A DNA stretch of 64,000 bases, from assembly GCA_965372635.1 (NCBI GenBank), contig CBDVDA010000001.1:2860-66859 (forward strand), written 5' to 3'. The position numbers and the translations under genes are program-made. This document shows, one piece after another, positions 32,769-51,453 of the stretch. The DNA comes from an uncultured bacterium (lineage in GTDB: Bacteria > Desulfobacterota > JADFVX01). Each line of letters opens with the position of its first letter. The stretch's first letter is position 1. The notes under the pieces are model-generated. The model saw only the letters and a program-made list of their open reading frames with translations, did not search any database and was not told the origin of the DNA.

Positions 32769-32926
32769 GTATATATTTTGCATAAATATAGGGATAAATA
32801 AGCATTTTTCAAGGTAATATGCTTGACACAATTTGTCCGGAGCAATAAAATAACTCTTTTGGTGAAAAGGCGACTTCCATCCGGAGGGAGTCTTTTATTA
32901 CTTAAGCCTGACGGGGAAATTCAGAT

Positions 32927-33676
32927 TTGAAAGCAATGGTCGTTATCCCGACCTATAACGAGCGGGAAAACATAGAAAAATTGGTAAATGAAATCCTGGC
33001 TCTCGGGCAGGACATACATATCCTTATTGTGGATGACAATTCTCCTGATGGTACGGGAAGTATTATCGATGAACTGGTTGAAAAGCACGAAGAGGTTCAT
33101 GTTAAGCACCGGCAGGGGAAGCTCGGGCTCGGAACCGCCTACAGGGAAGGCTTCAGGTATGCCCTCGATGCGGGGGCGGAATTCATCGTCCAGATGGATG
33201 CCGATTTTTCACATAACCCCGCACGGATACCGGAATTTCTTGAAAAGGCGAAGAAGGCGGACGTTGTTGTTGGCTCACGCTACCTGAACGGCGTGAGCGT
33301 TGTGAACTGGCCCATCAGGCGGCTCATGCTGAGTTATGGCGCAAATGTCTACACCCGGCTCATAACGGGCCTTAAAATTACCGATTGTACGGGTGGTTTT
33401 AAATGTTTTAAAAGAGAGGTACTGGAGGCTATCGATCTCGACAGCATAAAATCAGACGGCTATTCTTTCCAGATAGAAATGAACTATCGTAGCGTGGAGA
33501 GAGGCTTTCGCCTTGAGGAAATACCCATCATTTTTATCGACAGGCATGCGGGCTCGTCCAAGATGTCGAAGAAAATTGTCCGCGAGGCGGTAATTATGGT
33601 CTGGCGGCTGAGGCTCGGGGCCGTTTGCAGGAAGTTTTTCCGCCGAAAAAAGTTGAAAGAAGGGATGATAACATGA
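32927..33676 (+). CDS. GT2-family polyprenyl-phosphate glycosyltransferase (dolichol-phosphate mannosyltransferase-like)
   Basis: VVIPTYNEREN...LIVDDNSPDGTG...DAD motifs. Confidence 0.8.
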   Translation: MKAMVVIPTYNERENIEKLVNEILALGQDIHILIVDDNSPDGTGSIIDELVEKHEEVHVKHRQGKLGLGTAYREGFRYALDAGAEFIVQMDADFSHNPARIPEFLEKAKKADVVVGSRYLNGVSVVNWPIRRLMLSYGANVYTRLITGLKITDCTGGFKCFKREVLEAIDLDSIKSDGYSFQIEMNYRSVERGFRLEEIPIIFIDRHAGSSKMSKKIVREAVIMVWRLRLGAVCRKFFRRKKLKEGMIT

Positions 33677-33858
33677 TCAATCAAGGCTGGGCCGTTGTCT
33701 GCGAGATCGGATTTATCGGCTGGGTGGGGTGCGCCATCGGGTTTATTTTCAGAGCCTTCGGTGAAGATGATACCTTTTACGGCTCACGGGCGCTCTTTTG
33801 GGGAGGGCTTGTCGTTCTCTTTTATGGGCTCTGGGTAGCAGGTCTGGTCAGCGCCTAG
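33673..33858 (+). CDS. Small 2-TM membrane protein, of the kind commonly coupled to GT2 polyprenyl-phosphate glycosyltransferases
   Basis: MINQGWAVVCEIGFIGWVGCAIGFIF...LVVLFYGLWVAGLVSA. Its start overlaps the glycosyltransferase stop (ATGA). Confidence 0.45.
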   Translation: MINQGWAVVCEIGFIGWVGCAIGFIFRAFGEDDTFYGSRALFWGGLVVLFYGLWVAGLVSA

Positions 33859-34934
33859 TTTCTTTGCTGAACTTTTGGGAAATAAAGGGTTCTAAGTTTG
33901 GAATCCGCTTTTTTCTGTTCTTTTTCATGGCCTGTTTTTTACCGGGGGGTTGCGCGGGAACGGTAGAGCAAGAGAGCTCTGTTCTACCGGGAAAAACGAT
34001 TTCCTGGCCACCATCGCCGCTTAGGGCGCGGATCAAATATATCCGAAGCATAGGAGCGCCCTCATCGATTGCACTCAAAAAGGAAAAGGGGTGGCTGGGA
34101 AAGCTTTTTGATTTCATTACCGGTGGCGAGGGCGTGGGGGGAAAGGCTATCGATACCCCCTATGGTCTTTTTTACGACAGCGATGCCGATTTGCTCTTTG
34201 TTGCCGACAGGGCTCTACAGGGGGTGCATCGATACGACCTGAAGGCGGGGGAGGCCTCCTTTATGACAGAAGCGGGAGAAACCCGCCTGGAAATGCCGGT
34301 CATGGTGGTTGGCGGGGGAGGCAGGTATTACGTTTCAGATACGGTCCTCAATAAGGTTTTTGTATTTGACTCGAAGGGCCGGGTGACCAGGGAAATCGAA
34401 GAGTGGGGGCGTCCGGGAGGGATGGCCTATAGCGCCGCACAGGAAAGGCTTTATGTCGTCGATGTTACAGAGGGTCGTATTAAGGCCTTCGATGCCGAGG
34501 GAAACTTTCAGTTTTTCTTTGGAAACATCGGCGTCGGCAAGGGAGAATTTAACCTCCCTTCCAATATCTGGGTTGATAGGGCCGGTAAGGTTTATGTTAC
34601 CGATTCGATGAATTTCAGGATCCAGATTTTCGATGAATTTGGAAACCATGTGGGAAATATCGGAAAACTGGGGGATTCTCCTGGCGCCTTTGCCCGGCCG
34701 AGAGGCGTTGCCGTCGATAGCGATGGAAACGTCTATGTTGTGGACGCGAATTTCGATAATATCCAGATATTTAACCAGGAGGGAGAATTGCTTCTCGTCT
34801 TTGGCACGCCGGGAACGAAGGCCGGTGAGTTTACATTGCCGAGCGGTATCTTTATAGACCGGAATGACAGGATATATATCTCCGATTCGTACAACAAAAG
34901 AATTCAGGTATTTCAGTATTTTAAAGAGCAATAA
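33798..34934 (+). CDS. NHL-repeat (six-bladed beta-propeller) protein, probably a lipoprotein
   Basis: Repeated GxFxxPxGIAVDxxGNIYVxDxxNxRIQxF modules. Possible lipobox LPGGC after a hydrophobic stretch. The 5' end overlaps the previous small gene, so the start is uncertain. Confidence 0.7.
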   Translation: MGRACRSLLWALGSRSGQRLVSLLNFWEIKGSKFGIRFFLFFFMACFLPGGCAGTVEQESSVLPGKTISWPPSPLRARIKYIRSIGAPSSIALKKEKGWLGKLFDFITGGEGVGGKAIDTPYGLFYDSDADLLFVADRALQGVHRYDLKAGEASFMTEAGETRLEMPVMVVGGGGRYYVSDTVLNKVFVFDSKGRVTREIEEWGRPGGMAYSAAQERLYVVDVTEGRIKAFDAEGNFQFFFGNIGVGKGEFNLPSNIWVDRAGKVYVTDSMNFRIQIFDEFGNHVGNIGKLGDSPGAFARPRGVAVDSDGNVYVVDANFDNIQIFNQEGELLLVFGTPGTKAGEFTLPSGIFIDRNDRIYISDSYNKRIQVFQYFKEQ

Positions 34935-34937
34935 GCG

Positions 34938-35732
34938 ATGTTTTTTTATAACAAAAGAGTAGTTCCGGCTTTATTGGCGGCCCTGGTTTTAACCGGGCTC
35001 ACCCCATCCCTTTTTGCCGGTGTTGCGGACACGAAGCACAACCTTGCCTACTGGAGCGGCAATACGGTCCGCTCGGAAGAAGAGACGCAGATCTGCAAGT
35101 TCTGCCATACGCCGCACAATGCAAACCCGGCCGTCCCCCTCTGGGGGCATGATCTATCGTCGGAAGGGCCTTTCCAGATGTATTCCTCGGCCACGCTGGT
35201 TATCGACAATTCCACTGTCCTTGCCGACAGTAAATATAAAACCGGTTTGACTGGGGCATCCAAACTCTGCATGGGCTGCCACGACGGGGTGACGAGCCTC
35301 GGTGCGCTGGTAAACGCCAACATTACCATGAATACCTATGATACCTTGGCGGGAAGGCCGTCGGCCTATTCGGACCTCCGGAACAAGCACCCCGTTTCTT
35401 TTGTGTATAATGATGCTGTCAGGACGGCGATCAATAGTGTGAAGACTGGTTTTTACGACCTGCCGGATGAAACAACAAATGGGTCCATCATTAATCCACA
35501 AGTAGAAAAAAAGTGGCTTCAGGAAGGAAAGCGGGTGGAGTGCAATATCTGCCATGATCCCCATGACGATAAGGATGGGGACGCGTCGAAAAATCCCTTC
35601 TGGATAAGCACGAGTGTCGGTTCATTTTCTGCTCACGATTCAGTTTGTGTTACCTGTCACAGCCCTACGGCCGCTTTTGTAGAATATACGGGTTTTGGCG
35701 AATATACTAGCTTTAGCAAGGTGTACCCATAA
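34938..35732 (+). CDS. Periplasmic tetraheme c-type cytochrome
   Basis: Signal peptide and four CXXCH motifs (CKFCH, CMGCH, CNICH, CVTCH). Confidence 0.8.
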   Translation: MFFYNKRVVPALLAALVLTGLTPSLFAGVADTKHNLAYWSGNTVRSEEETQICKFCHTPHNANPAVPLWGHDLSSEGPFQMYSSATLVIDNSTVLADSKYKTGLTGASKLCMGCHDGVTSLGALVNANITMNTYDTLAGRPSAYSDLRNKHPVSFVYNDAVRTAINSVKTGFYDLPDETTNGSIINPQVEKKWLQEGKRVECNICHDPHDDKDGDASKNPFWISTSVGSFSAHDSVCVTCHSPTAAFVEYTGFGEYTSFSKVYP

Positions 35733-35769
35733 GAAAAATGAAGTGTAGTGTTATGGCAGAGCCTGGCCA

Positions 35770-36891
35770 ATGATGAAACTTTTGATTTCGAAAGCGCAAA
35801 TATTGCTTCTTGTTTTGGTGTGCTTTGCTTGCAACGCCGAGGCCGCACCCAAAGAAAAGCTTCGTTTTCCCGACCTTCACCGGGCATCGAATATGGTTAC
35901 GGGCGGGTGCGAATCATGCCACGCGGGGAGCAAGATGAACCGTGCCGTTAAGGAGACCTGCCTCCAGTGTCACGGGTCCATCGGCGACCTTAAGGGCGCC
36001 GAAAAGAAAAAACTGCTCAACCCTTTCTACCGGGGAGGACGGCAAATCAGGAAGATTGACATGAGAAGCCTGCTTGAAAAAGAATACAGGCATCCTCTCG
36101 GCGAGGAAGGAAACTGGCACAGTGCTCACGAGGAACTTCCGGAACGTGTGATGGATGCGCCCCGGCATGTGGAGTGCGTCGATTGTCACAATGCGCATTA
36201 TCTGAAAACTGCCAACAAACTGGCCGGTTTAAGAGGCGTCAGCAAGACGGGCATCTATGGCGTTCGGGCACGTTATGAGTATGAAATCTGTTTCAATTGT
36301 CATTCCGACAGCTTTAATCTTCCCGTCTGGCAAACAAACAAAAGATTGGAATTCGATGAAAACAACCCTTCCTACCATCCTGTCGTAGCGGAAGGGCAAA
36401 GCGGGATTGTTCCAAGCCTGAAAACCCCCTATAAGGAGACCTACGAGGAACCGGGCGATATTTCAATAATCAAATGCACCGATTGTCACGGAAACGATGA
36501 TGACCGGGGACCACAGGGGCCCCATGCTTCGATTTATCCTTTTATTTTGAAAAAGAAATATTCCATGCAGGATGGCCTCGATGAACGACCGAAAGAGTAC
36601 GATCTTTGCTATAGCTGCCACAAGAGAAGCAGTATCCTCGGCAACATTTCTTTTCGTTGGCATTCTTTACATATTCAGGGTGATATTATCAAGGGGGTAA
36701 AGGGAACGAGCTGCTTTACCTGCCATGACGCACATGGCAGCAGGGAGTATACCCACCTCATAAAATTTAATGAAGAAGTTGTGTTTATAAATACTTCTTC
36801 ATTGGAACTGAAATTTGTGGATAAAGGAGAATTTACCGGAGAATGTTATTTGAATTGCCATGGCGTTAACCATAGTCCGAAGGGTTACTAA
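35770..36891 (+). CDS. Multiheme c-type cytochrome (7 canonical CXXCH plus one CX3CH)
   Basis: Signal peptide. CESCH, CLQCH, CVDCH, CFNCH, CTDCH, CYSCH, CFTCH, CYLNCH. Confidence 0.8.
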   Translation: MMKLLISKAQILLLVLVCFACNAEAAPKEKLRFPDLHRASNMVTGGCESCHAGSKMNRAVKETCLQCHGSIGDLKGAEKKKLLNPFYRGGRQIRKIDMRSLLEKEYRHPLGEEGNWHSAHEELPERVMDAPRHVECVDCHNAHYLKTANKLAGLRGVSKTGIYGVRARYEYEICFNCHSDSFNLPVWQTNKRLEFDENNPSYHPVVAEGQSGIVPSLKTPYKETYEEPGDISIIKCTDCHGNDDDRGPQGPHASIYPFILKKKYSMQDGLDERPKEYDLCYSCHKRSSILGNISFRWHSLHIQGDIIKGVKGTSCFTCHDAHGSREYTHLIKFNEEVVFINTSSLELKFVDKGEFTGECYLNCHGVNHSPKGY

Positions 36892-37388
36892 TGCAGCCTA
36901 TAACAAGGCAGGGTATTTTGACTTTGATGGTATGTTCAGTTATTTTTTTTGGTTGCTCCGGAGGAGACCATAAATTCGGAAATGTTCATCGAGAGAGCAG
37001 TCTCTCTCCCGGAACGGATGGACTAAGAGAAAAGATAAATCCGCATCGTGGAAAACATTGCCTGAAATGTCATGTCACAGATGGAAATGAATTGTTTGAC
37101 CTGAGAAAAAAGAAAGGGCGTCAGGATTTTTCACCAGAAACTAACTTTCTCAAGGCAAACTTAAATAAATTATGCGCTTCCTGTCATGATAAGAAAAAAG
37201 GCGACCACCCGGTGGGTGCCGCTCCGGGAATAAACAGGCTCGATCTTCCACTGGATGAAAAAGGTAAAATAAACTGCGCTGCAACCTGTCACGATGTACA
37301 TATAAGCAATGAAAATATTTCAGGGGTAAAGAAAGGCTTGCTCCGGGCGCCCGCAGAAAAGTTATGTTTATCATGTCATGATGTTTGA
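36891..37388 (+). CDS. Small multiheme c-type cytochrome (3 CXXCH plus one CX3CH)
   Basis: CLKCH, CASCH, CAATCH, CLSCH. Signal peptide with a possible lipobox (FFGCS). Confidence 0.75.
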   Translation: MQPITRQGILTLMVCSVIFFGCSGGDHKFGNVHRESSLSPGTDGLREKINPHRGKHCLKCHVTDGNELFDLRKKKGRQDFSPETNFLKANLNKLCASCHDKKKGDHPVGAAPGINRLDLPLDEKGKINCAATCHDVHISNENISGVKKGLLRAPAEKLCLSCHDV

Positions 37389-37430
37389 TGTTTTATATTT
37401 ATTATGTTGGAACTATAAGGATGGTGTTTT

Positions 37431-38642
37431 ATGCCGGTGTTCAGATGTAAGGTGGGAGATGAAAGCGGAAAACTCGATGAGAAGGAAATAGAGGCAAGCG
37501 ATAGCAAACAGTTGCGGGAAAGGCTTGAGCAGGAAGGGTTATATGTTTATGAAATAAAGCAAAAGGGCACTTTTCAATTCGCCGTACCGAGTTTTTCGGG
37601 GCTCAAAAAAATCAGTACCGACGAATTTCTTGTCTTCAACCAGCAATTAATGGCTTTGCTTAAAGCCGGTCTGCCCCTGCTTTCATCCCTCGAAACGCTA
37701 GCCAGCCAGGAAGAAACCCCCCACTTTCAAAAAATACTAACTTCCGTTGCTAAAGAGGTTAAAGAAGGGGCTCCTTTTTCAAGTGCCGTTGAAGACTATC
37801 CCAGGGTTTTTTCAAAACTTTATGTTTCTTCACTCCGTGCGGGGGAAAAAAGCGGAGATCTCGTTTTAAATATCTCGAGATACATCGCTTACACAAAAAG
37901 GGTGGAAGAGCTAAAAAAAAAGGTCATTACAGCATCCGTCTATCCATTAATTCTTCTTACCGTTGCAACCTTTGTCATCCTTTTTCTTCTCCTCTATGTG
38001 GTGCCGTCATTCAGCCAGGTTTTTCTTGATGCAGGTACCTCTCTTCCTACGCCGACCCGTATTCTTATTGCCTTTACGGGGTTGGTAAAAAACAATGTAA
38101 TCTTTCTCTCAATACTGTTTATGGCGCTTTATCCTGTGTTTATGTTTGCCAGAAAAAATCAAAACCTTCGCCGGAAGATGGACAAGTTGAAATTGAATAT
38201 TCCCTGGGTCGGGAAAATCATTCATCGTTATGCGGTAGCGAAATTTTGCAGGACCCTTTCAACGATTCTTAAAAGTGGAGATCCCCTTGTTTCCGCTATT
38301 CCCCTGGCAGCAGGCACCCTGGAAAACAGTTATATGGAGGAGAGTGTTGTGGACGCCTCTAAGCGTGTTCGGGAGGGGGTCGGCCTGTCTCAGGCAATGG
38401 CAGACGCGAAATTGATGCCGGCCATGGCGCTGAAGATGATCAACGTCGGTGAATCGAGCGGCTCACTGGAAGAGATGTTTGACAACGTTGCCGATCTTTT
38501 TGAAGAGGAGGTGGATCGGAAATTAAATATTCTCACGTCAACCATCGAGCCCCTGCTTATGCTCAGCATGGGATTGATAGTTGCATTTATTGTTGTAGCC
38601 ATGTATCTTCCTATATTCAAACTTGCCGAGACGGTTAGATAG
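37431..38642 (+). CDS. gspF: Type II secretion / type IV pilus platform protein (GspF/PilC family)
   Basis: 403 aa, with the duplicated GspF cytoplasmic domain and 3 TM layout. Confidence 0.8.
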   Translation: MPVFRCKVGDESGKLDEKEIEASDSKQLRERLEQEGLYVYEIKQKGTFQFAVPSFSGLKKISTDEFLVFNQQLMALLKAGLPLLSSLETLASQEETPHFQKILTSVAKEVKEGAPFSSAVEDYPRVFSKLYVSSLRAGEKSGDLVLNISRYIAYTKRVEELKKKVITASVYPLILLTVATFVILFLLLYVVPSFSQVFLDAGTSLPTPTRILIAFTGLVKNNVIFLSILFMALYPVFMFARKNQNLRRKMDKLKLNIPWVGKIIHRYAVAKFCRTLSTILKSGDPLVSAIPLAAGTLENSYMEESVVDASKRVREGVGLSQAMADAKLMPAMALKMINVGESSGSLEEMFDNVADLFEEEVDRKLNILTSTIEPLLMLSMGLIVAFIVVAMYLPIFKLAETVR

Positions 38643-38653
38643 CAGAGTAGATA

Positions 38654-40366
38654 ATGGCAGAGAGAAAAAAAATAGGTGAAATTCTGGTTGAAATGGGATT
38701 TCTGTCGGATGAGCAACGCCGGGAAGTCCTTTCTCAGGAAATTACGGATGGGAAAAGATTCGGAGAGAGATGTATCGAAGGAGAGCTTCTTGATGATGAA
38801 CAACTCGCCAGAGCTCTCGCAAGGCAAAGTGGGAACGAATTTATCGACTTGTCTGACTTTGAACCTTCTGAAGAGCTTGTAGACGCAGTTCCTCTCGAAC
38901 TTATTCATCGCTATCTTTTCGTTCCTTACCAAAAGGAGGGAAAGAGGCTAACCATTGCCGTTTCCGACCCTACTGACGTTTTGTTAATTGATGAGTTGGA
39001 ACTTCTCCTCGATTTGACCATTGTTGCCGGGGTTTCACCGTCCCAGGCGATTGCGAAAGCGATTAAGGTCTTTGAACGTTCGGGAAGGCTTGTCAAGGAT
39101 GTATCCGCCGGGATGGAGTTGCAGTTGGTTAAAGAGACTGACGACGGCGATGAAGTCCTCTCCATGGAGAAAATATCGGAGGAGATGAGCCCTGTTGTCA
39201 AGCTCGTCGATTCGACAATTCTCGATGCATTAAGCAAGCGAGCTAGTGACATTCATATTGAGAGCACTCGCAAAGGGCTGGAAATCAAATACCGGATAGA
39301 TGGCGTTCTTTACAGCGCTGCCGTCCCTCTCGATACCCAGTTTCAATCTCCCATCATTTCGAGGATTAAGGTAATGTCCGAACTGGACATCTCGGAAAAA
39401 CGGATTCCTCAGGATGGCCGTTTCAAGCTGAGAATCGGAGGGAAGGCGATTGATTTCAGGGTCTCCATCATGCCGAGTATTCACGGTGAAGATGCCGTTA
39501 TCAGGATTCTGGACAAAGAGTCGATCGGTGCTGAAATTCAAAAGCTGAGCCTCGAATCTGTCGGATTTCACGAGGATGAAATTGTTCGATTCCGTAAAAT
39601 GATTCGGGAACCCTACGGTATGGTGCTTGTGACGGGGCCGACGGGAAGCGGAAAAACGACGACTCTTTATGCGGCCCTGACGGAGATCAACAGCGTTGAG
39701 GAAAAAATCATTACCATTGAAGACCCTGTCGAATATAATCTTGACGGCATCGTACAGATACCGGTTAATGAAAAAAAAGGCCTTACCTTTGCAAAGGGCC
39801 TCCGGTCGATTTTACGTCATGACCCGGATAAGATTATGGTAGGAGAGATAAGGGATGTGGAAACTGCGCAAATAGCGATCCAGTCCGCCCTGACGGGCCA
39901 TCTGGTCTTTACTACTGTTCATGCCAACAACGCCTTTGACGTTATCGGACGCTTCCTGCATATGAACATGGAGCCCTATAATTTCGTATCGTCCCTGAAT
40001 TGTATCCTGGCTCAAAGACTGGTTAGAAAGCTCTGCGAAAAGTGCAAGCAGGAAGTCAAACTATCACGGGAAGAGATGGAAGAATCCCACTTCGACTACG
40101 AAAAATATAAAGATCATACCTTTTTTGATGCAAAAGGGTGCGGTGACTGTAATTATACAGGCTACAGGGGGAGGTCGGCAATCGTTGAACTGCTCGACCT
40201 TACGGAGGAAATTCGGGAACTGATTCTGGAAAAAGCCTCAACGGCAAAATTGAAAGCGGCGGCTGCCAAGTCAGGCACCACTTTTTTAAGGGGCGCCGCC
40301 GTCAGAAAAGTGTTGAGTGGCGAGACGACTCTGAAAGAAATAAATCGCGTCACCTTTGTTGACTGA
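38654..40366 (+). CDS. gspE: Type II secretion / type IV pilus assembly ATPase (GspE/PilB family) with an MshEN-like N-terminal domain
   Basis: Walker A GPTGSGKTTTLYAAL and tetracysteine CEKCKQ...CGDCNYTGYRGR. The N-terminus has two RxGE(I/L)LV..G.(L/I)...QL..AL..Q-type motifs (KIGEILVEMGFLSDEQRREVLSQ, RFGERCIEGELLDDEQLARALARQ), as in c-di-GMP-binding MshEN domains. Confidence 0.85.
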   Translation: MAERKKIGEILVEMGFLSDEQRREVLSQEITDGKRFGERCIEGELLDDEQLARALARQSGNEFIDLSDFEPSEELVDAVPLELIHRYLFVPYQKEGKRLTIAVSDPTDVLLIDELELLLDLTIVAGVSPSQAIAKAIKVFERSGRLVKDVSAGMELQLVKETDDGDEVLSMEKISEEMSPVVKLVDSTILDALSKRASDIHIESTRKGLEIKYRIDGVLYSAAVPLDTQFQSPIISRIKVMSELDISEKRIPQDGRFKLRIGGKAIDFRVSIMPSIHGEDAVIRILDKESIGAEIQKLSLESVGFHEDEIVRFRKMIREPYGMVLVTGPTGSGKTTTLYAALTEINSVEEKIITIEDPVEYNLDGIVQIPVNEKKGLTFAKGLRSILRHDPDKIMVGEIRDVETAQIAIQSALTGHLVFTTVHANNAFDVIGRFLHMNMEPYNFVSSLNCILAQRLVRKLCEKCKQEVKLSREEMEESHFDYEKYKDHTFFDAKGCGDCNYTGYRGRSAIVELLDLTEEIRELILEKASTAKLKAAAAKSGTTFLRGAAVRKVLSGETTLKEINRVTFVD

Positions 40367-40377
40367 AGATAATATCC

Positions 40378-41268
40378 ATGTTCTTTAACCGTACTCACAA
40401 AACTATCGACATCACATCCGATTCTGTACGTTTCGTGGAAATTGAAGGTTCCGGATCCATGCCGCGACTCATTCATGCCGCTACAGATGACCTTCCCGAC
40501 GGACTTGTTGTCCCCTCCTTTGCCAAATCAAATATTAGCGACCGGGAATTGCTGAAGGAAAAAATCTCCGCGCTTATTCCGGATAAAAAAAGAGGTGGAG
40601 ACATTGCGCTTTGCCTCCCTGACTCTCTCGTGAAAATCACGTCTCTCAGCTTTGAGGATTTGCCGGCCAAAAAAGACGAAGCGACAAAATTGATTCTCTG
40701 GCGCTTAAAAAAAACAGTGCCTCTCCCAACGGAACTCATAAAAATCGATTATGCAATCCTTTCGCAGGAAGAGGCCGGGGTACAAGTACTGACGGCTGCC
40801 GCCTCCAAAACAGTAATCAGGGAGTATGAAGATGTTTTGCGGGAGCTCGGTTTTCGACCCCGTCTGGTGGATATAGCCACCCTGAGCGCCCTTTTTCTTT
40901 ACAAAAAAACGATTGATGATAATTCACTCTTTATCAACTTTAAAGATAACATCATGAGCTTTGCCTTTCTGGTCGAAGGCAAAGTAGAATTTTTCCGGAG
41001 TAAAGAAATGGACTCTACGCCTGCTACTGTTGAGAAGGAATTTGCGTCTACTTATCGGTACTATCAAGCAAATTTTCGGGAACAGGGCGTCGATAATATT
41101 TGTGTCCATTTGGCCGGTGAAAATTCAGATGAGATTCTGAGCGCTTTAAAGAACAGTTTTGAAGGGGAAATTGCAGTTCTCCGGTTATTGGATTTTGCAT
41201 CCTGCCCTGCATCTTTAACAACCGATGAAAACTACTCGTCGGCAATCGGCCTTGCTCTCACGCTTTAA
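40378..41268 (+). CDS. PilM-like actin-fold assembly protein (GspL cytoplasmic-domain analogue)
   Basis: 296 aa. Sits in the pilM position ahead of single-TM PilN/PilO-like genes. Confidence 0.6.
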   Translation: MFFNRTHKTIDITSDSVRFVEIEGSGSMPRLIHAATDDLPDGLVVPSFAKSNISDRELLKEKISALIPDKKRGGDIALCLPDSLVKITSLSFEDLPAKKDEATKLILWRLKKTVPLPTELIKIDYAILSQEEAGVQVLTAAASKTVIREYEDVLRELGFRPRLVDIATLSALFLYKKTIDDNSLFINFKDNIMSFAFLVEGKVEFFRSKEMDSTPATVEKEFASTYRYYQANFREQGVDNICVHLAGENSDEILSALKNSFEGEIAVLRLLDFASCPASLTTDENYSSAIGLALTL

Positions 41269-41302
41269 TGTTCTACTTGAATTTTTAACATAAATATTTG
41301 GA

Positions 41303-41869
41303 ATGATTTCTTTTAACCTGGCCACATACGAATATACAGACAAGAGGGTAGCCCTCCTGATAGCGGTTTTTATTTCTTGCACCTTGGTTTTATTTGCCGG
41401 CTACAATTACATAGTTTACGAAAAATCAAAGGTGCAATCTGATCGTGCCCTGAAAGAGGTAAAAAAAATACAAAAAGATATCTCTCTTATTAAAAAACAA
41501 ATCGAGGAAAGCAAAAAAGGGAAAGACAGCGCCATCGGAGGACGTTATGAAGAGAAGCTTTCGGATAAGATACTCTGGCTAAATGAAATTATAGGAAGAA
41601 AAGCATTTTCCTGGAGTCAATTGTTGTATTCTCTGGAGAAGGCGTCCCCTCCTCGTATCGCAATTAAAACAATAAGACCAAATTTTTCCGGAAAAAAGAT
41701 TAGAATCATCGGCCAAGCGAAAGATGTGGCTGCTATTACAACCTTTGTAGATAGTCTTCAGGGGACTAAATATATTACGAAAAGTTTTCTCTTGAAAGAG
41801 AATATTGTCATTGTAGAAAAAAAATATGAAGCCGTTGATTTTGAAATTGAATGTGAAGGAAATTTTTGA
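41303..41869 (+). CDS. PilN-like bitopic inner-membrane protein
   Basis: N-terminal TM (LLIAVFISCTLVLFAGYNYIVY) followed by a coiled-coil. 188 aa. Confidence 0.55.
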   Translation: MISFNLATYEYTDKRVALLIAVFISCTLVLFAGYNYIVYEKSKVQSDRALKEVKKIQKDISLIKKQIEESKKGKDSAIGGRYEEKLSDKILWLNEIIGRKAFSWSQLLYSLEKASPPRIAIKTIRPNFSGKKIRIIGQAKDVAAITTFVDSLQGTKYITKSFLLKENIVIVEKKYEAVDFEIECEGNF

Positions 41870-42429
41870 GAATGTTACAGTCGGCACAAAAATATTTTAA
41901 TGAAAACAGGGGAGGATACAGCACAGCGCTATTACTTCTTCTTGCCAATATAATTTTTTATTTTGCCATTGTTGCACCCAACTCGACGAGAATAGAACAG
42001 TCAAAGCTGGAATATTTTAACCTCAGAAAATCGCACGCGAAAATAGAAAACGAACTTCTGGAAACGAAAGCGCGTATAATCAATATCGGCGCTATGGAAA
42101 CCGATATAAAGCAATTTCTGGGAGAACTGCCCACACCCTCGGCCATGACCGGACTCGGGCGGGCGATTCACAAGCTAGCGAAAAAAAACAGGTTGGAAAT
42201 GAGATCGGTCAAGTATTCACTCCCTCAAAAGAAGAAGGAGGACATTCTTGTCTATGCCGTTTCACTCCCTGTAACCGGCAGCTATAAACAGGTCAGGCGT
42301 TTCATCTACCACCTTGAGAAAATGCCTTATCTTATGACCATAGACAACCTCAATCTGTCTGCCAGTAAAGGCAATAAAGTTTCTTTGAACCTGAATATTT
42401 CCTTTTATTTCAAGGCGGCAAAAGGATGA
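41866..42429 (+). CDS. PilO/GspM-like bitopic inner-membrane protein
   Basis: TM (ALLLLLANIIFYFAIVAP), then coiled-coil and a ferredoxin-like C-terminus. Overlaps the previous stop. Confidence 0.55.
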   Translation: MRMLQSAQKYFNENRGGYSTALLLLLANIIFYFAIVAPNSTRIEQSKLEYFNLRKSHAKIENELLETKARIINIGAMETDIKQFLGELPTPSAMTGLGRAIHKLAKKNRLEMRSVKYSLPQKKKEDILVYAVSLPVTGSYKQVRRFIYHLEKMPYLMTIDNLNLSASKGNKVSLNLNISFYFKAAKG

Positions 42430-43214
42430 AAAAGGAACCGGTTATTCTTGCGGCACTTTTGATCATTTTAGTTGCAGTTTTTATGAGCAATATACAGGGC
42501 TCGAAAGAAAGACGGATTGGAGAACTTACATTCAAAACGGGCACGCAAACTTTGGAAAGCGAAAATATAAAAAAAAGTGAGGGCGAAGGTTCCCTCCGCA
42601 TCGATAAGAAAAATTTTCCACCCAAACGAGCGTCTTTTAAACTTGGGAATCAAAATATATTTCGACCGCTTCTTTATGTGACGCGGTCGGCGCCTGCCCC
42701 GGCAATTACACAATCCGTGCCCCCTATCATGGTATCAACCCCTAATCTCACAGTTTTTGTAGGAATAGACGCCGAGGTTCCCGTAACAAATGCACAGGGA
42801 ACTCTAAGTGTTGTTTTCAATCCCGACGGAATAGGCGCAGCCAGCGGCACATCATCTCCCCTCACTTTTTCCTGTCTTGTAACGGGTCGTACCGTGGCGA
42901 CTATATCCGATGGAAATAGTTCGGTTACTCTTAATCTGGACTGCGACCTCAGGCCTCCGGAAAAGAAACTGGCCAGCTTTATCTTTCTTGGTTTTTTGGA
43001 GTCGGAGAAGGAAAAGACGATCTTTTTGTCGAAGGATGGAGAGATATTTGTTGTCAAGAGAGGGGATACCCTCGTGAAAAAGAGTGCTACTATTCCGCAG
43101 GATTATGTGGTAAAAATAATAACCGATGAAAAAGTAGTCATTTCATCGTCTGACGGGTCTGATTTAATGGAAATCAGCCTTATTGAAAATGAGCCTCTTC
43201 TCAGGAACAAATAG
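42426..43214 (+). CDS. PilP/GspC-like periplasmic secretin-interacting protein
   Basis: N-terminal TM/signal. C-terminal beta-domain with a SFIFLGFL...IFVVKRGDTLV...YVVKII pattern reminiscent of PilP. Confidence 0.5.
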   Translation: MKKEPVILAALLIILVAVFMSNIQGSKERRIGELTFKTGTQTLESENIKKSEGEGSLRIDKKNFPPKRASFKLGNQNIFRPLLYVTRSAPAPAITQSVPPIMVSTPNLTVFVGIDAEVPVTNAQGTLSVVFNPDGIGAASGTSSPLTFSCLVTGRTVATISDGNSSVTLNLDCDLRPPEKKLASFIFLGFLESEKEKTIFLSKDGEIFVVKRGDTLVKKSATIPQDYVVKIITDEKVVISSSDGSDLMEISLIENEPLLRNK

Positions 43215-43230
43215 GAAGGAGATATTTCAG

Positions 43231-45573
43231 ATGTTTTTCAGAACAGATAGTGCAAAGAAAATAACACTATTTTTAATTATTGCTCTCACGTTGGCCGGGT
43301 GCTCTACGATGAAGATAAAGACGGCAATGAGAGATGGGGATACGCTGGCATTGCAGGAACGGTGGGACGAGGCTCTGGACAGATACCTGGAGGTTGCGGA
43401 ACAAATGCCGCAAGACAAAGAATACCGACTCAAGGTGGAAAAAGCCAAGTATGAAGCGTCCCTTATCCATATAAAAAAGGGGGAGGACCTGCTAGGCAAA
43501 AAAGATTATGACAGGGCGCTGCTGGAATTTCAGGTGGCAGCAATGCTTAATCCATCGCTCAGAAAGGCGAAAGATCTCGGAGCCAGGGCAAAAAAGCAAA
43601 AAGACGCTGATTATTATTACAGAACGGGACTCACCTTTATTGAATCGAACAAAAAAAATGAGGCGCGGGCGGCCTTTAAAAAGGTGCTCTTTCTCGACCC
43701 CAAACGTGATGATGCGGCAACGGCGCTTGAAAAACTGAAAAAAGAGAGAAAAACGGTTGTCGGCGGCTATGAATTAAACCTGAAAAGTGATAAGCCGATT
43801 ACGTTAAAATTCAAAAGTACGGCCATTACGGATGTTTTTGACATTATTTCCAAACTCTCGGGCATCAACTTTATTCTCGATGAGGGGGTCAAAAGGAAGA
43901 AAGCCACCCTCTATATCGAGGATGCAACCTTCGAACAGGCACTCGACCTTGTGCTGATGACGAATCGGCTTTTCAAGAAGGTAGTCAACGAAAATACAAT
44001 CATCATAATTCCTAATACCAAACAAAAACGGCAGCAGTATGAGGATCTTATCATCCATACTTTTTATCTTTCCAGCCTGGATGCAAAAAAAGCGGTCAAC
44101 CTCTTGAGGACATTGCTCCAGATCAAAAGCATCTATGTAAATGAAATGTTGAATACCATCGTTGTCAGGGATACCCCCGAAGTCATTGCCTTGGCGGAAA
44201 AAGTGCTGCAAGCGAATGATCAACCCGATGCGGAGATAATGCTGGAAGTTGAAATCCTCGAAGTGCAAAAGAGTGCTACGGAAAACCTGGGATTGGATTT
44301 GTCACCTGATACTATCACAGCAGGTCTGAGAGAGGGGGGCGTTAGTGGTAGTAAAGAACTCACATATAATACTCTGAAAAAATTTTCAAGGTCGGATATG
44401 CTGTTCAGTATTCCTGATTTTGTAATCAATCTCCAGAAAAGTCAAGGCAAGGCGAACCTTCTCGCCAATCCCAGGATCAGGGTTGCAAACAAGAAAAAGG
44501 CAAAGATACATGTTGGTGACAGGGTACCTACAATTACTTCGACGGTTAATAACAATGTTGTCACTGAAAATGTAACCTATGTGGATGTAGGTGTTAAGCT
44601 CAATATAGAACCGACCATTCACAACGATAATGATGTAACGCTGAAGATAAAAATGGAAATTAGTTCCGTAGGAGAAACCATTAAAACAAGTCAAAGCACG
44701 GTGTTTAGAATAGGAACGCGGAATGCGGAAACAGAACTCCGTTTGCATGATGGTGAGACACAGGTAATCGGGGGGTTGATAAGTGAAACAGAAAGGACTT
44801 CTACTGTTAAAGTACCCTTTTTTGGTGAAATCCCTGTCCTTGGAAGATTATTTTCATCTTCCAATGATACAAAAGAAAAAACAGAGATCGTTCTTACTAT
44901 AACACCTCACATCGTTAGAGAAAGAAAGATTGCCGATCCGGAATTTTTGAATATTTGGTCCGGCAAGGCCCAGGAACTCTCGTCAAAACCGCCCTTCTCC
45001 AGCTTCATCGAAGAAGAGGCGTTTCTTGACTTACCGCCTCCCGGGGCGGGTTTGATTGGTACAGAGCCACTTGGGACGATGGGCGCTATTGCCGTTCCTC
45101 ACAGTCCGGAAGAAGAGAATCAGGAAGCGGAGATCGCACCGGCACCTGTTGGCGACGGGGGGGGCGCATCGCTCATCATTGACGGCCCTGTTTCCGTTAA
45201 CAATAATGATGAATTTAATCTCGTTGTTTCTCTTAGCAGTTCCGAAAATGTAACCAGTGTACCCTTTTATCTCAGATACGATGCGGCGCTTATAAGCTTT
45301 ATTCGGGCCACCGAAGGGGATTTCTTAAAAAGAGACGGTAAATCGACGGCATTCATGTTTAATGATGATAAGAAAAGGGGCAGGGTTATTGTTGGCAGCT
45401 CAAGGCTGGGTGATCAGATCGGAATAAACGGCCAGGGAACGGTTATGACCGTAGCATTCAAGGCAATCAAGGCTGGGAGAGCAAAGTTTCACCTGGAGAA
45501 TTACAGGATTACCGGAACGGAGGGAAAAGTCATCCAGACCACGGTTACTGAAAAAAGCGTCCAAATTTTATGA
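43231..45573 (+). CDS. Outer-membrane secretin (GspD/PilQ family) fused to an N-terminal lipoprotein TPR module and carrying a C-terminal extra beta-domain
   Basis: Lipoprotein signal LTLAGCST. About 150 aa of TPR-like helices. Secretin N-domain (ITDVFDIISKLSGINFILDE), secretin signature (VPFFGEIPVLGRLF), then about 230 aa of beta-rich extension. Start set at MFFRTDSAKK (43231). Confidence 0.8.
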   Translation: MFFRTDSAKKITLFLIIALTLAGCSTMKIKTAMRDGDTLALQERWDEALDRYLEVAEQMPQDKEYRLKVEKAKYEASLIHIKKGEDLLGKKDYDRALLEFQVAAMLNPSLRKAKDLGARAKKQKDADYYYRTGLTFIESNKKNEARAAFKKVLFLDPKRDDAATALEKLKKERKTVVGGYELNLKSDKPITLKFKSTAITDVFDIISKLSGINFILDEGVKRKKATLYIEDATFEQALDLVLMTNRLFKKVVNENTIIIIPNTKQKRQQYEDLIIHTFYLSSLDAKKAVNLLRTLLQIKSIYVNEMLNTIVVRDTPEVIALAEKVLQANDQPDAEIMLEVEILEVQKSATENLGLDLSPDTITAGLREGGVSGSKELTYNTLKKFSRSDMLFSIPDFVINLQKSQGKANLLANPRIRVANKKKAKIHVGDRVPTITSTVNNNVVTENVTYVDVGVKLNIEPTIHNDNDVTLKIKMEISSVGETIKTSQSTVFRIGTRNAETELRLHDGETQVIGGLISETERTSTVKVPFFGEIPVLGRLFSSSNDTKEKTEIVLTITPHIVRERKIADPEFLNIWSGKAQELSSKPPFSSFIEEEAFLDLPPPGAGLIGTEPLGTMGAIAVPHSPEEENQEAEIAPAPVGDGGGASLIIDGPVSVNNNDEFNLVVSLSSSENVTSVPFYLRYDAALISFIRATEGDFLKRDGKSTAFMFNDDKKRGRVIVGSSRLGDQIGINGQGTVMTVAFKAIKAGRAKFHLENYRITGTEGKVIQTTVTEKSVQIL

Positions 45574-45587
45574 AGATAGGGCCAAAA

Positions 45588-46067
45588 ATGGTCTGTCGTA
45601 AGGGAAAAGGGGTCACGTTTATTGAGCTTTTGATCGTTCTTACAATACTTTCTCTTCTTGCCTCAGTTGTTTTACCCCTCGGCCAGATTAGCAAAAAAAG
45701 GGCGAAAGAATATGAGTTGAAGAGCCGCCTTAGAACCATCCGATCTGCCATCGATGCCTATCAGAAAGTCTATGATGAAAAGAGGATAATGAATGTAATC
45801 GGGCGCTCGGGATATCCTGAGACATTGCTGGAACTGGTTGAAGGGATGGAAGATGTAAGAGACCCGGAAGGGAAGATGATCTACTTTTTGAGACGGCTGC
45901 CGCGTGACCCGATGAATAACAATGAATTCCTTGCCCCTGAAGAGACATGGGAAACGAGGGCCTATGAAGGAGAACCCGATGATTTTTCTGGTGGCGACGA
46001 TGTTTTTGATATTCGTTCAATGAGTTATGATATTGCACTGGACGGTACTGAGTACAAGGAGTGGTAA
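45588..46067 (+). CDS. GspG-like pseudopilin (prepilin leader, Glu5, LPRDP motif)
   Basis: MVCRKGKG|VTFIELLIVLTILSLLASVV, later RLPRDPMNN. 160 aa. Confidence 0.7.
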   Translation: MVCRKGKGVTFIELLIVLTILSLLASVVLPLGQISKKRAKEYELKSRLRTIRSAIDAYQKVYDEKRIMNVIGRSGYPETLLELVEGMEDVRDPEGKMIYFLRRLPRDPMNNNEFLAPEETWETRAYEGEPDDFSGGDDVFDIRSMSYDIALDGTEYKEW

Positions 46068-46070
46068 CCG

Positions 46071-46466
46071 GTGGCGAAACTAAAAAAGAAGTCAGGGGAA
46101 GAGAAGGGGTTCACCCTCATAGAGCTACTGATCGTAATGAGCATCGTTGCCATCCTGTTGACAATTGCACAGCCCATGTACAGGGAATCAACGATCAAGG
46201 CGAGGGAAACCGTTTTAATGGAAAACCTCTTTACCCTACGGGATGTTATCGACCAGTTTTACGTCGATAAAAGCCGCTATCCTGACTCTCTAGAGGAACT
46301 GACCGACCTCGGTTATATAAGAACACTTCCCAAAGACCCCTTTACCCGCTCTTCCGAAAGCTGGCAATTAATCCCCCCCTCTGAAGGTTATGAAGGCGGT
46401 GTCTATGATGTACACAGCGGCAGTGATTTGGTTGCACTTAACGGCACCCCTTATAATGAGTGGTAA
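46071..46466 (+). CDS. gspG: Major pseudopilin GspG
   Basis: GTG start. KG|FTLIELLIVMSIVAILLTIAQPMY and TLPKDPF motif. 131 aa. Confidence 0.8.
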   Translation: MAKLKKKSGEEKGFTLIELLIVMSIVAILLTIAQPMYRESTIKARETVLMENLFTLRDVIDQFYVDKSRYPDSLEELTDLGYIRTLPKDPFTRSSESWQLIPPSEGYEGGVYDVHSGSDLVALNGTPYNEW

Positions 46467-46537
46467 AAAATCCCCGGCAGGCATTTTGTGTCGTGAAAAT
46501 AGAATAACTTTCCCTAATATTTTTAGTTGTTCAAGCA

Positions 46538-47026
46538 ATGGCTGGAGTGGTGAAAAGAGCAACGTCTGAAGAAGGTTTTACTTATATACATCTCCTCCTC
46601 ATGGTTGTAGTCATGGGAATATCCCTCTCCGCAATGGGCCGTTACTGGAGCTATCTCGATAAAAAGGACAAGGAGGCGGAATTGCTGTTCAGGGGAGACC
46701 AGTATATGAGGGCCATAGACTCCTATTTCAAACGCTCACACGGCAAAGTCAATATCTACCCGAAAAAATTGGAAGACCTGTTAAAAGACCCGAGGAGCCT
46801 TGCGCCGAGGCGACATCTTCGCAAGATTTATAAAGATCCCATGACGGGAGAGGCTGACTGGGTTCCCATTCTTGACCCGGCAAGCAAGCGGATAAAAGGC
46901 GTCAAAAGCCGCAGTGAAGAGATGCCGCTGAAAACAGACGGGTTTCCAAAAATCTATCAAGCCTTTAAAGATAAAGGGAGTTATAGTGACTGGGTCTTTG
47001 TCCACAAGCCCGGGATGAAATGGTAG
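46538..47026 (+). CDS. Minor pseudopilin-like protein that lacks Glu5
   Basis: EEG|FTYIHLLLMVVVMGISLSAMG. Prepilin-type N-terminus with His at +5. 162 aa. Confidence 0.55.
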   Translation: MAGVVKRATSEEGFTYIHLLLMVVVMGISLSAMGRYWSYLDKKDKEAELLFRGDQYMRAIDSYFKRSHGKVNIYPKKLEDLLKDPRSLAPRRHLRKIYKDPMTGEADWVPILDPASKRIKGVKSRSEEMPLKTDGFPKIYQAFKDKGSYSDWVFVHKPGMKW

Positions 47027-47065
47027 TATTTAGCCCTTCCAATTCCTTGAAAGCAACCATCCTTA

Positions 47066-48547: not shown

Positions 48548-48551
48548 ACCG

Positions 48552-50160: not shown

Positions 50161-50742
50161 ATGAGGAGTCGATTGATAGTATTGCTGGGTGCGTTACAGG
50201 TTTATTTGTTTGCAGGCACTCTCTATGCAGCGCCGGGCTACGTAGGCGCGGAGGGGTGCAAATGCCATAAGGCAGAAATTGCCGACTGGGAGCGAAGCGG
50301 TCACGGAAAGGCATTTAATCTGCTGAAACCGGGTAAAAAGAAATCGAAAAAGAAAAAGGCGGGGCTCGACCCCAAAAAGGATTATACGCGCGATGAAAAA
50401 TGTCTAAAATGCCATGTTACCGGCAAGGGCGAGGAGGGAGGGTTCAGGGATTTTGCCTCCACGCCCGGAATGGCCGGCGTGGGGTGCGAATCGTGCCACG
50501 GCCCCGGCAGTGAATACAGGTCTCTCCATAAGGAAAAAACGACGGCATTTTCCCGCGATGAAGCGAAGGCACTCGGCGAAACCTACGGCTCGCTCGACGC
50601 GGGGGTCTGTGAAACTTGCCACGTAAATAAGGACAACCCCTTTAAGCCGGAGATGAACAAGAAATATAAATTCGACCACGGGGCGGCGCTCAAAAAGAAT
50701 CGGGAGTTTCACGATTATTACGAACTGGAGGGGCAGCATTGA
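50161..50742 (+). CDS. Periplasmic tetraheme c-type cytochrome (NrfA/c554-superfamily-like first heme with W..SGH)
   Basis: Signal peptide. CKCHK, CLKCH, CESCH, CETCH. GCKCHKAEIADWERSGH motif. Confidence 0.8.
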   Translation: MRSRLIVLLGALQVYLFAGTLYAAPGYVGAEGCKCHKAEIADWERSGHGKAFNLLKPGKKKSKKKKAGLDPKKDYTRDEKCLKCHVTGKGEEGGFRDFASTPGMAGVGCESCHGPGSEYRSLHKEKTTAFSRDEAKALGETYGSLDAGVCETCHVNKDNPFKPEMNKKYKFDHGAALKKNREFHDYYELEGQH

Positions 50743-50805
50743 TGGCGCTTTTCCCGTCGGGCTGCCCAGTTAGACAGTTTCTCTTAGGCGCCCCGAAATA
50801 ATATA

Positions 50806-51396: not shown

Positions 51397-51453
51397 CAAT
51401 TTATTAACCCACCTTCCTGATAACGAGAAAGAAAGTTTGACAAATATTAGCCT

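Follow-up and report, generated by a model that had tools for sequence, protein, structure and literature searches.

[quoted passage not shown] Membership in the Geobacteraceae Pul group, an atypical type II system, was supported by gene order and by similarity to named PulE proteins, with 64–66% identity to the NCBI-named PulE of Geotalea daltonii, G. uraniireducens and Desulfuromonas versatilis. In the PDB, the best matches were Geobacter metallireducens PilB and Myxococcus PilB (E~1e-137). Although the protein belongs to the T2SSE superfamily (PF00437, E=1e-131), it scored below the cut-offs of both the PilB equivalog (TIGR02538, 581.3 versus 675.65 bits) and the GspE equivalog (TIGR02533, 534.2 versus 630.25 bits), which places it inside the PilB/GspE superfamily and outside both equivalogs. 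The catalytic motifs of the ATPase are also intact, with an Asp box (DFRVS at 267), Walker A (GPTGSGKT at 328), Walker B (IMVGEIRD at 394), a His box (TGHL at 414) and a tetracysteine zinc motif (CEKC at 461, CGDC at 496).

Table 1 Features of the Pul locus and of its ATPase, in window coordinates.
Feature	Position	Strand	Basis
Upstream accessory module: GT2 glycosyltransferase, NHL-repeat protein, three multihaem c-type cytochromes	32927..37388	+	Pfam
GspF/PilC-type platform protein (PulF), 12 nt upstream of ATPase	37431..38642	+	Pfam T2SSF 1.4e-57
PulE-type (PilB/GspE family) secretion/pilus-assembly ATPase, 570 aa	38654..40366	+	ORF; Pfam T2SSE 1e-131
MshEN motif I, aa 6–29, KIGEILVEMGFLSDEQRREVLSQE	38669..38740	+	gap-free versus MshE R9–Q32
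5-residue spacer, aa 30–34, ITDGK	38741..38755	+	length equal to MshE spacer
MshEN motif II, aa 35–58, RFGERCIEGELLDDEQLARALARQ	38756..38827	+	aligned to MshE R38–Q61
MshEN_C alpha/beta subdomain, aa 62–143, including D105	38837..39082	+	Pfam PF05157; AF2
N2 and C-terminal ATPase core (T2SSE, aa 176–565)	39179..40348	+	Pfam PF00437; catalytic motifs
PilM-, PilN- and PilO-like proteins and 262-aa protein in PilP position (alignment subcomplex)	40378..43214	+	Pfam PilM_2, PilN, PilO
Secretin with N-terminal lipoprotein/TPR region and C-terminal cohesin domain	43183..45573	+	Pfam Secretin 1.5e-45, TPR_2, STN, Secretin_N, Cohesin
Three pseudopilins (G/VTFIELL, G/FTLIELL, G/FTYIHLL)	45570..47026	+	N_methyl; weak GspG matches
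HAMP histidine kinase and sigma-54 response regulator, directly downstream	47066..49928	+	Pfam

The Pul machine combines a GspF-like platform and PilM/N/O with a TPR-secretin-cohesin protein and three pseudopilins. PulF scored 352.9 bits against the NCBIfam GspF model, under the cut-off of 424, and the protein in PilP position (42426–43214) had no family match. The order of PilM/N/O and the PilP-position gene, as well as the secretin architecture, were identical in a G. daltonii locus (L001) and a MAG locus (L002), and the downstream kinase and regulator arrangement recurred in the latter. The pseudopilins described for Geobacteraceae Pul are PulG, OxpG and TklG (PMC3543383). Geobacteraceae Pul clusters share with the window the order PulF, PulE, PilM/N/O, a gene without assignment, the TPR-secretin-cohesin protein and the pseudopilins, and in several species the GT2/NHL/cytochrome module likewise lies upstream. 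Shared naming and synteny suggest orthology of the ATPase to G. sulfurreducens PulE (GSU1783; PMC8557921 Table 1, PMC3543383). In contrast, the window cluster follows ispG and a Na/Pi transporter, while Geobacteraceae Pul follows clpP-clpX-lon; it also differs in its downstream histidine kinase and sigma-54 regulator, and in a GC content lower than that of its flanks. A near-consensus sigma-70 site lies at 32823–32851, ahead of the accessory module, whose genes are tightly spaced on one strand. A search for the sigma-54 promoter consensus returned two one-mismatch matches, a number no higher than chance would give, and neither lies close to the cluster.

The first 119 residues of the ATPase (38654–39010) had been described in an earlier note as carrying an MshEN-type domain with two tandem motifs. 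Both motif strings are present in frame +1 (aa 6–28 and 35–58), and the domain assignment was borne out by sequence, register, fold and family: the N-terminus (about 145 residues) is a real but imperfect copy of the MshEN (GSPII) c-di-GMP-binding domain. For ATPases of this kind the feature is an ordinary one; more than 10,000 proteins with an MshEN domain on a PilB/GspE-family ATPase had reportedly been counted in 2016, its presence is expected, and Pfam already tags exactly this protein. When searched alone, the 63-aa N-terminal fragment aligned without gaps to Vibrio cholerae MshE (PDB 5HTL; PMC5013675, PMC4624772), with query residues 4–58 opposite MshE 7–61 (E=4.9e-5); identity to MshE is 28%. 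Two 24-residue motifs and a 5-residue spacer (24+5+24; K33–R37 in MshE, PMC5013675) occupy aa 6–58 without gaps relative to the 53-residue MshE site, and the NCBIfam model NF053729 (‘c-di-GMP_motif, MshE-related’) matches the same residues over profile positions 1–53 of 53. The Pfam MshEN model (PF05157), which spans the C-subdomain and not the motif-bearing bundle, matched aa 62–140 at 56.6 bits against a gathering cut-off of 23.1.

An AlphaFold (AF2) model of the domain (pLDDT 89.9) has a four-helix N-subdomain (aa 7–13, 19–27, 36–42, 48–59) followed by an alpha/beta C-subdomain with strands at 90–95, 98–103 and 122–127 and helices at 73–78, 81–87, 109–119 and 130–143. Its top Foldseek match was MshE with c-di-GMP (5HTL; TM 0.78–0.82, rmsd 2.4 Å), followed by the X. 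citri PilB N-domain complexed with PilZ and by c-di-GMP-bound structures of the PilF GSPII-B domain. In the phmmer register (query 4–114 opposite MshE 7–117), D105 within SDPTD corresponds to MshE D108, the Asp that contacts guanine-2, and its column is nearly invariant in alignment A1.

Within this fold, the motifs have been altered unevenly. The RLGxxL-type pattern proposed in the earlier note holds only in part, with 7 of 11 exact positions in motif I and 8 of 11 in motif II, and the strict pattern is satisfied by neither. The motif I string had ended one residue short, at Q28; in register, motif I runs from K6 to E29, so that position 24 is Glu and Q28 sits one residue out of register from it. 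Motif I residues K1, I2, G3, L6, V7, G10, F11, L12 and L21 are the same as in MshE or conservative replacements, with R22 at position 17 (MshE L25) and E29 at position 24 (MshE Q32). Motif II (R35 to Q58) retains R1, G3, I7, L11, L12, L17, L21 and Q24 and has Phe, Cys and Glu at positions 2, 6 and 10, where the pattern has Leu, Leu and Gly. Among 120 homologues, F2 and C6 are family-typical (102/120 and 97/120), while E44 at position 10, the place of the helix-3/4 turn glycine, is unique to the query (Gly in 110/120).

Compared with MshE, the query shares the two-subdomain fold, the register, the N-terminal position on the ATPase, Gly-3 of both motifs, Arg-1 of motif II and the equivalents of L29, L54, L58, Q61 and D108, but carries R9 to K6, L10 to I7, L25 to R22, Q32 to E29, L39 to F36, L43 to C40 and G47 to E44, the non-conservative changes being those to R22, E29 and E44. 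The two proteins also differ in setting, as MshE works in the MSHA pilus and the query in a Pul secretion-type cluster. The Arg/Leu/Gln positions that the earlier note expected to be conserved were retained in part: position 1 is K or R and Q58 is kept, while Leu-17 and Gln-24 of motif I are lost. Both Gly-3 residues are present (G8, G37), and K6 and R35 agree with the extended position-1 consensus of R/K/L, Lys at motif I position 1 being found in nanomolar binders (PMC11731258). The Leu clusters (positions 2, 17 and 21 of each motif) are incomplete (I7, R22, L26 and F36, L51, L55); the guanine-2 cluster of I7, L51 and L55 is intact, and the guanine-1 cluster has R22 and F36 for Leu. Gln at position 24 is found only in motif II (Q58, versus E29), and the turn Gly at position 10 only in motif I (G15, versus E44, with G43 adjacent). 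For comparison, Myxococcus PilB, whose MshEN domain reportedly binds c-di-GMP (PMC11656802), has Asn at motif I position 10 as aligned here.

The most likely function of the domain is that of a c-di-GMP sensor of reduced affinity, and we place the probability that it binds c-di-GMP, with a predicted Kd in the low-to-tens of micromolar range, at about one half. One c-di-GMP monomer would lie across the four-helix bundle between two unequal half-sites. In the guanine-2 half, which is canonical, R35 would provide stacking and G37/E38 the backbone amides, together with Q58, D105 and the cluster of I7, L51 and L55. In the guanine-1 half, which is altered, K6 would stack and G8/E9 would supply the amides, together with a cluster of R22, L26 and F36, and Glu (E29) replaces Gln. 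If the domain works as in MshE, the bound ligand would release the N-domain from an inhibitory state, the hexamer would engage the PilM/PulF platform more productively, and pseudopilus assembly and secretion would increase at high c-di-GMP.

Mutational precedents bear on each half-site. For example, G11L abolishes c-di-GMP binding by MshE and G40I weakens it 72-fold; these residues, the most damaging ones to mutate, are retained in the query as G8 and G37, which counts in favour of binding. MshE L25A, altered at the position of R22, retains a +9 °C shift with c-di-GMP. The closest parallel for E29 is the GSPII-B domain of Thermus thermophilus PilF (PDB 8PDK, 9GL5; PMC11731258, PMC12207366), which has Lys at motif I position 1 like the query and a matching fold (TM 0.74–0.79). 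Its Q190E variant reproduces the query Glu at motif I position 24 and binds at 950 nM, 158-fold weaker but not abolished, and a protonated Glu is able to donate a hydrogen bond to the phosphodiester (PMC12207366). PilF differs, however, in having three tandem GSPII domains and wild-type Gln at both position 24 sites, and the query also carries R22 and E44. Among homologues, the ligand contacts are widely conserved (G8 in 114 of 120, K/R6 in 113, R35 in 106, G37 in 116, Q58 in 116 and L55 in 117), the reverse of the pattern in the non-binder XpsE; these positions lie outside the fold core. A subclade (P0003, P0005, P0007, P0020) likewise has Arg at position 17, which is therefore tolerated.

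A precedent for c-di-GMP control of type II secretion exists in another branch of the family, where the T2SSE_N domain of an ATPase of secretion type, not pilus type, binds c-di-GMP with a Kd of 480 nM. Canonical T2SS ATPases, which the earlier note took as c-di-GMP binders (GspE) or as an alignment reference (XcpR), are not such precedents: neither XcpR nor V. cholerae GspE bound the ligand, and only MshE and PA14_29490 (HxrA) did (PMC4624772), so XcpR is the wrong positive reference. If the domain does bind c-di-GMP, the second messenger would act directly on a Geobacter-type Pul machine, and extracellular electron transfer would gain a further, post-translational level of regulation.

A substantial possibility, though one we rate below even odds, is that the MshEN domain is degenerate, its fold kept to dock or regulate the ATPase with PilM/PulF or an adaptor and physiological c-di-GMP binding lost. 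Such domains have precedents in XpsE, in PilF GSPII-A and in the PilZ-binding N-domain of Xanthomonas PilB, the last of which, in its X. citri complex with PilZ, is the second-best fold match. The XpsE N-domain (PDB 2D28) and PilF GSPII-A (PDB 9G1W; PMC12002112) share the fold of the query and resemble MshEN in sequence without binding, so sequence likeness does not guarantee binding, and GSPII-A shows that small deviations together with context can abolish it. The query carries R22, E29 and the unique E44 at motif positions, and the equivalent of E29 alone costs PilF 158-fold. Furthermore, Gly-3 or Arg-1, both critical, has been lost in 6 of the 20 closest relatives, which indicates that binding is dispensable in the clade, and Acidobacteriota homologues function without any four-helix bundle. 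The NF053729 score of the query was the lowest among all sequences tested (36.8 bits in the full protein versus the curated cut-off of 38; 44.0 bits, E=1.4e-11, for the isolated 63-aa fragment), below even that of the proven non-binder PilF GSPII-A (55.5 bits; PMC12002112). As GSPII-A outranks both the query and Geotalea PulE, the bit score was rejected as a classifier of binders and non-binders.

Against degeneracy, the query retains Gly-3 and the position-1 cation in both motifs, along with Q58, D105 and an entire guanine-2 half-site, and several of exactly these residues are missing from known non-binders (PMC12002112). XpsE lost G11, R38, G40, L54, L58 and Q61, all of which have retained equivalents in the query, while GSPII-A has S-L-A instead of R-L-G and has lost the LxxxLxxQ of motif II, both of which the query keeps. 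Every single deviation of the query also has a published precedent that still binds. Should binding nevertheless be absent, the domain would be a natural example of a few substitutions silencing an MshEN site and would help to calibrate sequence-based receptor prediction.

It is very improbable that the asymmetric site is tuned to another cyclic dinucleotide, for which the candidate is 3'3'-cGAMP, which in Geobacter acts as a signal for extracellular electron transfer. The asymmetry itself is real and family-wide, as motif II is near-invariant, with Phe at its position 2 in 102 of 120 homologues, while motif I position 24 is Gln in only 16 of 120. MshEN also binds cGAMP, but weakly (KD 3.3e-4 M; PMC5013675). 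However, MshEN owes its base specificity to backbone amides, those of Gly-3 and of residue 4, which read guanine O6/N7; both pairs (G8-E9, G37-E38) are unchanged, so there is no sign of adenine recognition. Neither a cGAMP riboswitch nor evidence of a Hypr-GGDEF was found within the window; an Rfam search of its whole length at gathering thresholds gave no match, and hence no GEMM-I/Ib (c-di-GMP/cGAMP) riboswitch. That an unrelated helical N-terminus matches by chance, as the failure of both motifs to satisfy the strict published pattern might suggest, is refuted by the fragment E-values (4.9e-5 to MshE, 1.4e-11 to NF053729), the exact 24+5+24 register, the fold match (TM ~0.8 to 5HTL) and conservation across 120 homologues.

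The earlier note had further proposed that cytochrome secretion is gated by c-di-GMP, with a GGDEF cyclase as circuit partner. The domain and its setting support part of this, as the three multihaem cytochromes do lie in the tightly packed same-strand gene row of the ATPase; the optional nature of the module, the degenerate site and the remote cyclase count against it. The only GGDEF gene in the 64-kb window, which encodes a GAF-GGDEF protein (3607–5544), lies 33 kb away on the minus strand among unrelated housekeeping genes; it is not evidence of a dedicated circuit, and the gene was rejected as a partner on distance, strand and unrelated intervening genes. PilZ, EAL and HD-GYP genes were absent from the window.

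Pul loci do not always have the cytochrome module beside them: it is present in some Desulfuromonadales loci and absent in others. It is missing from four (L004, L006, L009 and L014) in which the motifs persist, and among the loci compared no link was found between cytochrome neighbours and motif retention. It is unlikely that the cytochromes are Pul cargo; one cargo alone has been reported for Pul in Geobacter, the multicopper protein OmpB (PMC3543383). We regard as more doubtful still the broader proposal that Desulfuromonadia Pul ATPases, with a systematically asymmetric site of canonical guanine-2 half and remodelled guanine-1 half, act as a second-messenger switch, through low-affinity c-di-GMP or, for example, 3'3'-cGAMP, that turns on export of the co-transcribed multihaem cytochromes. 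Such a switch would tie the deployment of extracellular electron-transfer proteins directly to nucleotide signalling. The remodelled half has Phe at motif II position 2 and no Gln at motif I position 24, with Arg22 and Glu29 in the ATPase described here.

The segment at 38654-39010 (+) encodes residues 1-119 of a 570-aa open reading frame (38654-40366) and translates without stops; the opposite strand carries stops. Judged by its sequence, the product is a PilB/GspE-family ATPase: it matches T2SSE (Pfam; 1e-131, aa 176-565) and MshEN PF05157 (2.6e-15, aa 62-140), retains intact Walker A, Asp box, Walker B, His box and tetracysteine motifs, and has as its closest solved structures Geobacter metallireducens PilB (6OLJ/5TSG, E~1e-137) and Myxococcus PilB (3JC8), with scores under both NCBIfam equivalog cut-offs (PilB 581 versus 676, GspE 534 versus 630). 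Its gene belongs to a row with minimal intergenic gaps from 32927 onward, behind a near-consensus sigma-70 site at 32823-32851. Gene order is shared with Geotalea daltonii FRC-32 and the metagenomic contig L002, and the cluster is recognisable as the Geobacteraceae 'Pul' system, whose pseudopilins (PulG, OxpG, TklG) are described as required to secrete the multicopper protein OmpB (PMC3543383). Orthology of the ATPase to G. sulfurreducens GSU1783 is presumed through shared naming and synteny rather than direct alignment. In Geobacteraceae, including G. daltonii, the Pul genes follow clpP-clpX-lon, whereas in the window they follow ispG and a Na/Pi-PhoU gene, and they may be an additional Pul set or one gained by horizontal transfer. 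The TPR-secretin-cohesin architecture is conserved in the G. daltonii (14415-16832) and L002 (14532-16814) loci, and at mature position 5 the third pseudopilin (46538-47026) carries His where Glu is usual (G/FTYIHLL). G+C across 32000-48000 is markedly lower than in the flanks (0.38-0.50 per kb versus 0.54-0.58).

Genes of the Pul cluster (window positions) and elements of the ATPase N-domain (residues, MshE register)
Feature	Position	Strand
GT2 glycosyltransferase	from 32927	+
NHL-repeat protein	from 33798	+
Three multihaem cytochromes	from 34938, 35770, 36891	+
GspF/PilC	from 37431	+
ATPase	from 38654	+
PilM, PilN, PilO	40378-42429	+
262-aa protein without family assignment	from 42426	+
Secretin with TPR (N-terminal lipoprotein/TPR region) and C-terminal cohesin domain	43183-45573	+
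Three pseudopilins	from 45570, 46071, 46538	+
HAMP histidine kinase	from 47066	+
Sigma-54 response regulator	from 48552	+
Motif I	K6-E29	
Spacer (5 residues)	I30-K34	
Motif II	R35-Q58	

An earlier note had proposed an MshEN-type N-domain from two motif strings, both of which are found in the protein (residues 6-28 and 35-58). The alignment to Vibrio cholerae MshE that it proposed places the full site in one ungapped register: phmmer pairs residues 4-58 with MshE 7-61 without gaps (E=4.9e-5, 63-aa query) and the register holds through residue 114, so that MshE numbering is that of the ATPase plus three. An AlphaFold2 model of aa 1-146 from an alignment of 70 homologues (mean pLDDT 89.9) has helices at 7-13, 19-27, 36-42 and 48-59 ahead of an alpha/beta subdomain; among PDB entries it lies closest to 5HTL, 'MshE with cdg' (TM 0.78-0.82, rmsd 2.4 A), and next to the complex of the X. 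citri PilB N-domain with PilZ and to PilF GSPII-B with bound c-di-GMP. Given this alignment and fold match, the MshEN identity is secure. Chance resemblance of the motifs is excluded. The strict pattern that the note had applied did not hold in either motif, with exact matches at 7 of 11 positions in motif I and 8 of 11 in motif II, and its 23-residue motif I string stops at Q28, position 23 of the 24-residue motif.

Graded against the structure description and mutant table of MshE (PMC5013675), the site keeps G8, G37, R35, L26, L51, L55, Q58 and D105. G8 and G37 are the equivalents of MshE G11 and G40, the most sensitive positions: binding is lost altogether in G11L and is 72x weaker in G40I (PMC5013675). 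K6 (MshE R9), I7 (L10), F36 (L39) and C40 (L43) are conservative or family-typical changes: Lys at motif I position 1 is within the extended consensus and present in nanomolar binders (PMC11731258), and of the 120 homologues 102 share F36 and 97 share C40. R22, E29 and E44 are non-conservative. Arg at position 22 recurs within a subclade of relatives and replaces MshE L25, where L25A retains a +9 C shift with c-di-GMP (PMC5013675). E29 replaces Q32, at which Q32A has a 9-fold cost (PMC5013675); the same Q-to-E change in PilF GSPII-B (Q190E) costs 158-fold (6 to 950 nM), the protein still binding and crystallised with ligand, and Glu, when protonated, can form a hydrogen bond with the phosphodiester (PMC12207366). 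E44, adjoining G43, replaces the turn glycine G47 and is shared by 0 of 120 homologues. The conserved Arg, Leu and Gln expected by the note are kept at R35, L26/L51/L55 and Q58 and changed at K6, I7, R22, F36, C40 and E29. Of the two halves of the putative binding site, the guanine-2 half-site (R35, G37/E38, I7, L51, L55, Q58, D105) reads as canonical and the guanine-1 half-site (K6, G8/E9, R22, L26, F36, E29) as altered.

With NCBIfam NF053729 ('c-di-GMP_motif, MshE-related', cut-off 38 bits), the full protein is the weakest match among the sequences scored, at 36.8 bits (44.0 as an isolated fragment) versus 86.8 for MshE, 68.8 for G. metallireducens PilB, 65.6 for P0004 (a relative at 76% identity), 63.4 for PilF GSPII-B, 63.0 for Myxococcus PilB, 62.4 for PilF GSPII-C, 55.5 for the proven non-binder PilF GSPII-A (PMC12002112), 53.7 for G. 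daltonii PulE and 41.6 for the homologue P0003. As NF053729 fails to part binders from non-binders, sequence scoring cannot decide c-di-GMP binding. Contact positions are strongly conserved in the best 120 homologues (63-78% identity, from Desulfuromonadia; G8 114, K/R6 113, R35 106, G37 116, L55 117, Q58 116), but few of them (16/120) have Gln at motif I position 24. This pattern speaks for selection on ligand binding across the family, in which the guanine-1 half-site differs systematically.

Binding of c-di-GMP by the N-domain is given a probability of about 0.5, and the domain is best read as a sensor of reduced affinity, whose ligand-bound state would favour productive coupling of the PilM/PulF platform with the hexamer, on the model inferred for MshE, where pilus export needs c-di-GMP binding and mutation of three Leu residues makes the protein constitutively active (PMC5013675; PMC4624772). 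A degenerate, non-binding docking domain is a serious but somewhat less probable alternative. Critical Gly-3 and/or Arg-1 are lost in six of the 20 closest relatives (P0009, P0011, P0012, P0018, P0019, P0021), suggesting repeated loss of the site inside the protein's own clade, and the four-helix MshEN_N bundle is wholly absent from Acidobacteriota homologues (L015-L082; 56-59% identity over the core), so binding is dispensable in some lineages. The six relatives are 70-75% identical to the ATPase, with Gly-3 swapped for E or A and/or Arg-1 replaced; the Acidobacteriota ATPases, which are the nearest homologues from beyond Desulfuromonadia, have at their N-terminus a short Gly-rich leader of unrelated sequence, and their loci have no cytochromes upstream of the ATPase. 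Recognition of a different dinucleotide is very improbable. MshEN on PilB/GspE-type ATPases has been known since 2015-2016 and is widespread (>10,000 proteins; PMC5013675), and this protein is already tagged by Pfam; it is chiefly useful as a naturally occurring variant close to the threshold, against which receptor prediction can be calibrated.

The proposal that c-di-GMP gates cytochrome secretion is supported in part. Co-transcription of the cytochromes with the secretion machine is plausible, but in Desulfuromonadales the insertion of the GT2/NHL/multihaem-cytochrome module between lon and pulF is optional: the module stands upstream of the ATPase in L001 (G. daltonii), L002, L003, L008, L010 and L012 and is absent from Geomonas silvestris (L004), L006, L009 and L014, whose pulF comes immediately after lon. 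The MshEN motifs are retained by most of these module-less loci, and across the compared Pul loci the MshEN site has no association with cytochrome neighbours. The GAF-GGDEF gene offered in support (3607-5544, minus strand; GGEEF intact, RNID I-site) sits 33 kb from the ATPase on the opposite strand, with the housekeeping genes SCO1, GlnRS, NAD kinase, MgsA, MutL, MiaA, UvrA and IspG between them, and gives no grounds for a dedicated circuit. It is unlikely that the cytochromes are gated cargo of the Pul machine. No PilZ, EAL or HD-GYP genes were found among the window's large ORFs, and no riboswitches in the window (Rfam). The note's reference proteins are in part ill-chosen: in the founding screen neither XcpR nor V. 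cholerae GspE bound c-di-GMP, binding being confined to MshE and PA14_29490 (HxrA) (PMC4624772).

The GGDEF gene does lie beside an orphan pilin, as the note had it for 3607-5886: a prepilin is encoded directly upstream of the membrane GAF-GGDEF protein, with no assembly genes nearby. This 71-aa prepilin (MIIPSFKKFEKG/FTLIELLIVV...; 5671-5886, minus strand) has a mature form of ~59 aa and resembles a truncated Geobacter PilA-N 'geopilin'. Downstream of the two-component pair, 50161-57008 (+) encodes two cytochrome c554-like proteins, a HAMP-MCP chemoreceptor, and a multihaem cytochrome with an MtrB/PioB-type outer-membrane porin, a pair that looks like a porin-cytochrome conduit. A RES-domain protein (toxin-type domain) is encoded at 19550-20392 (+) in housekeeping surroundings, where G+C dips to 0.47.
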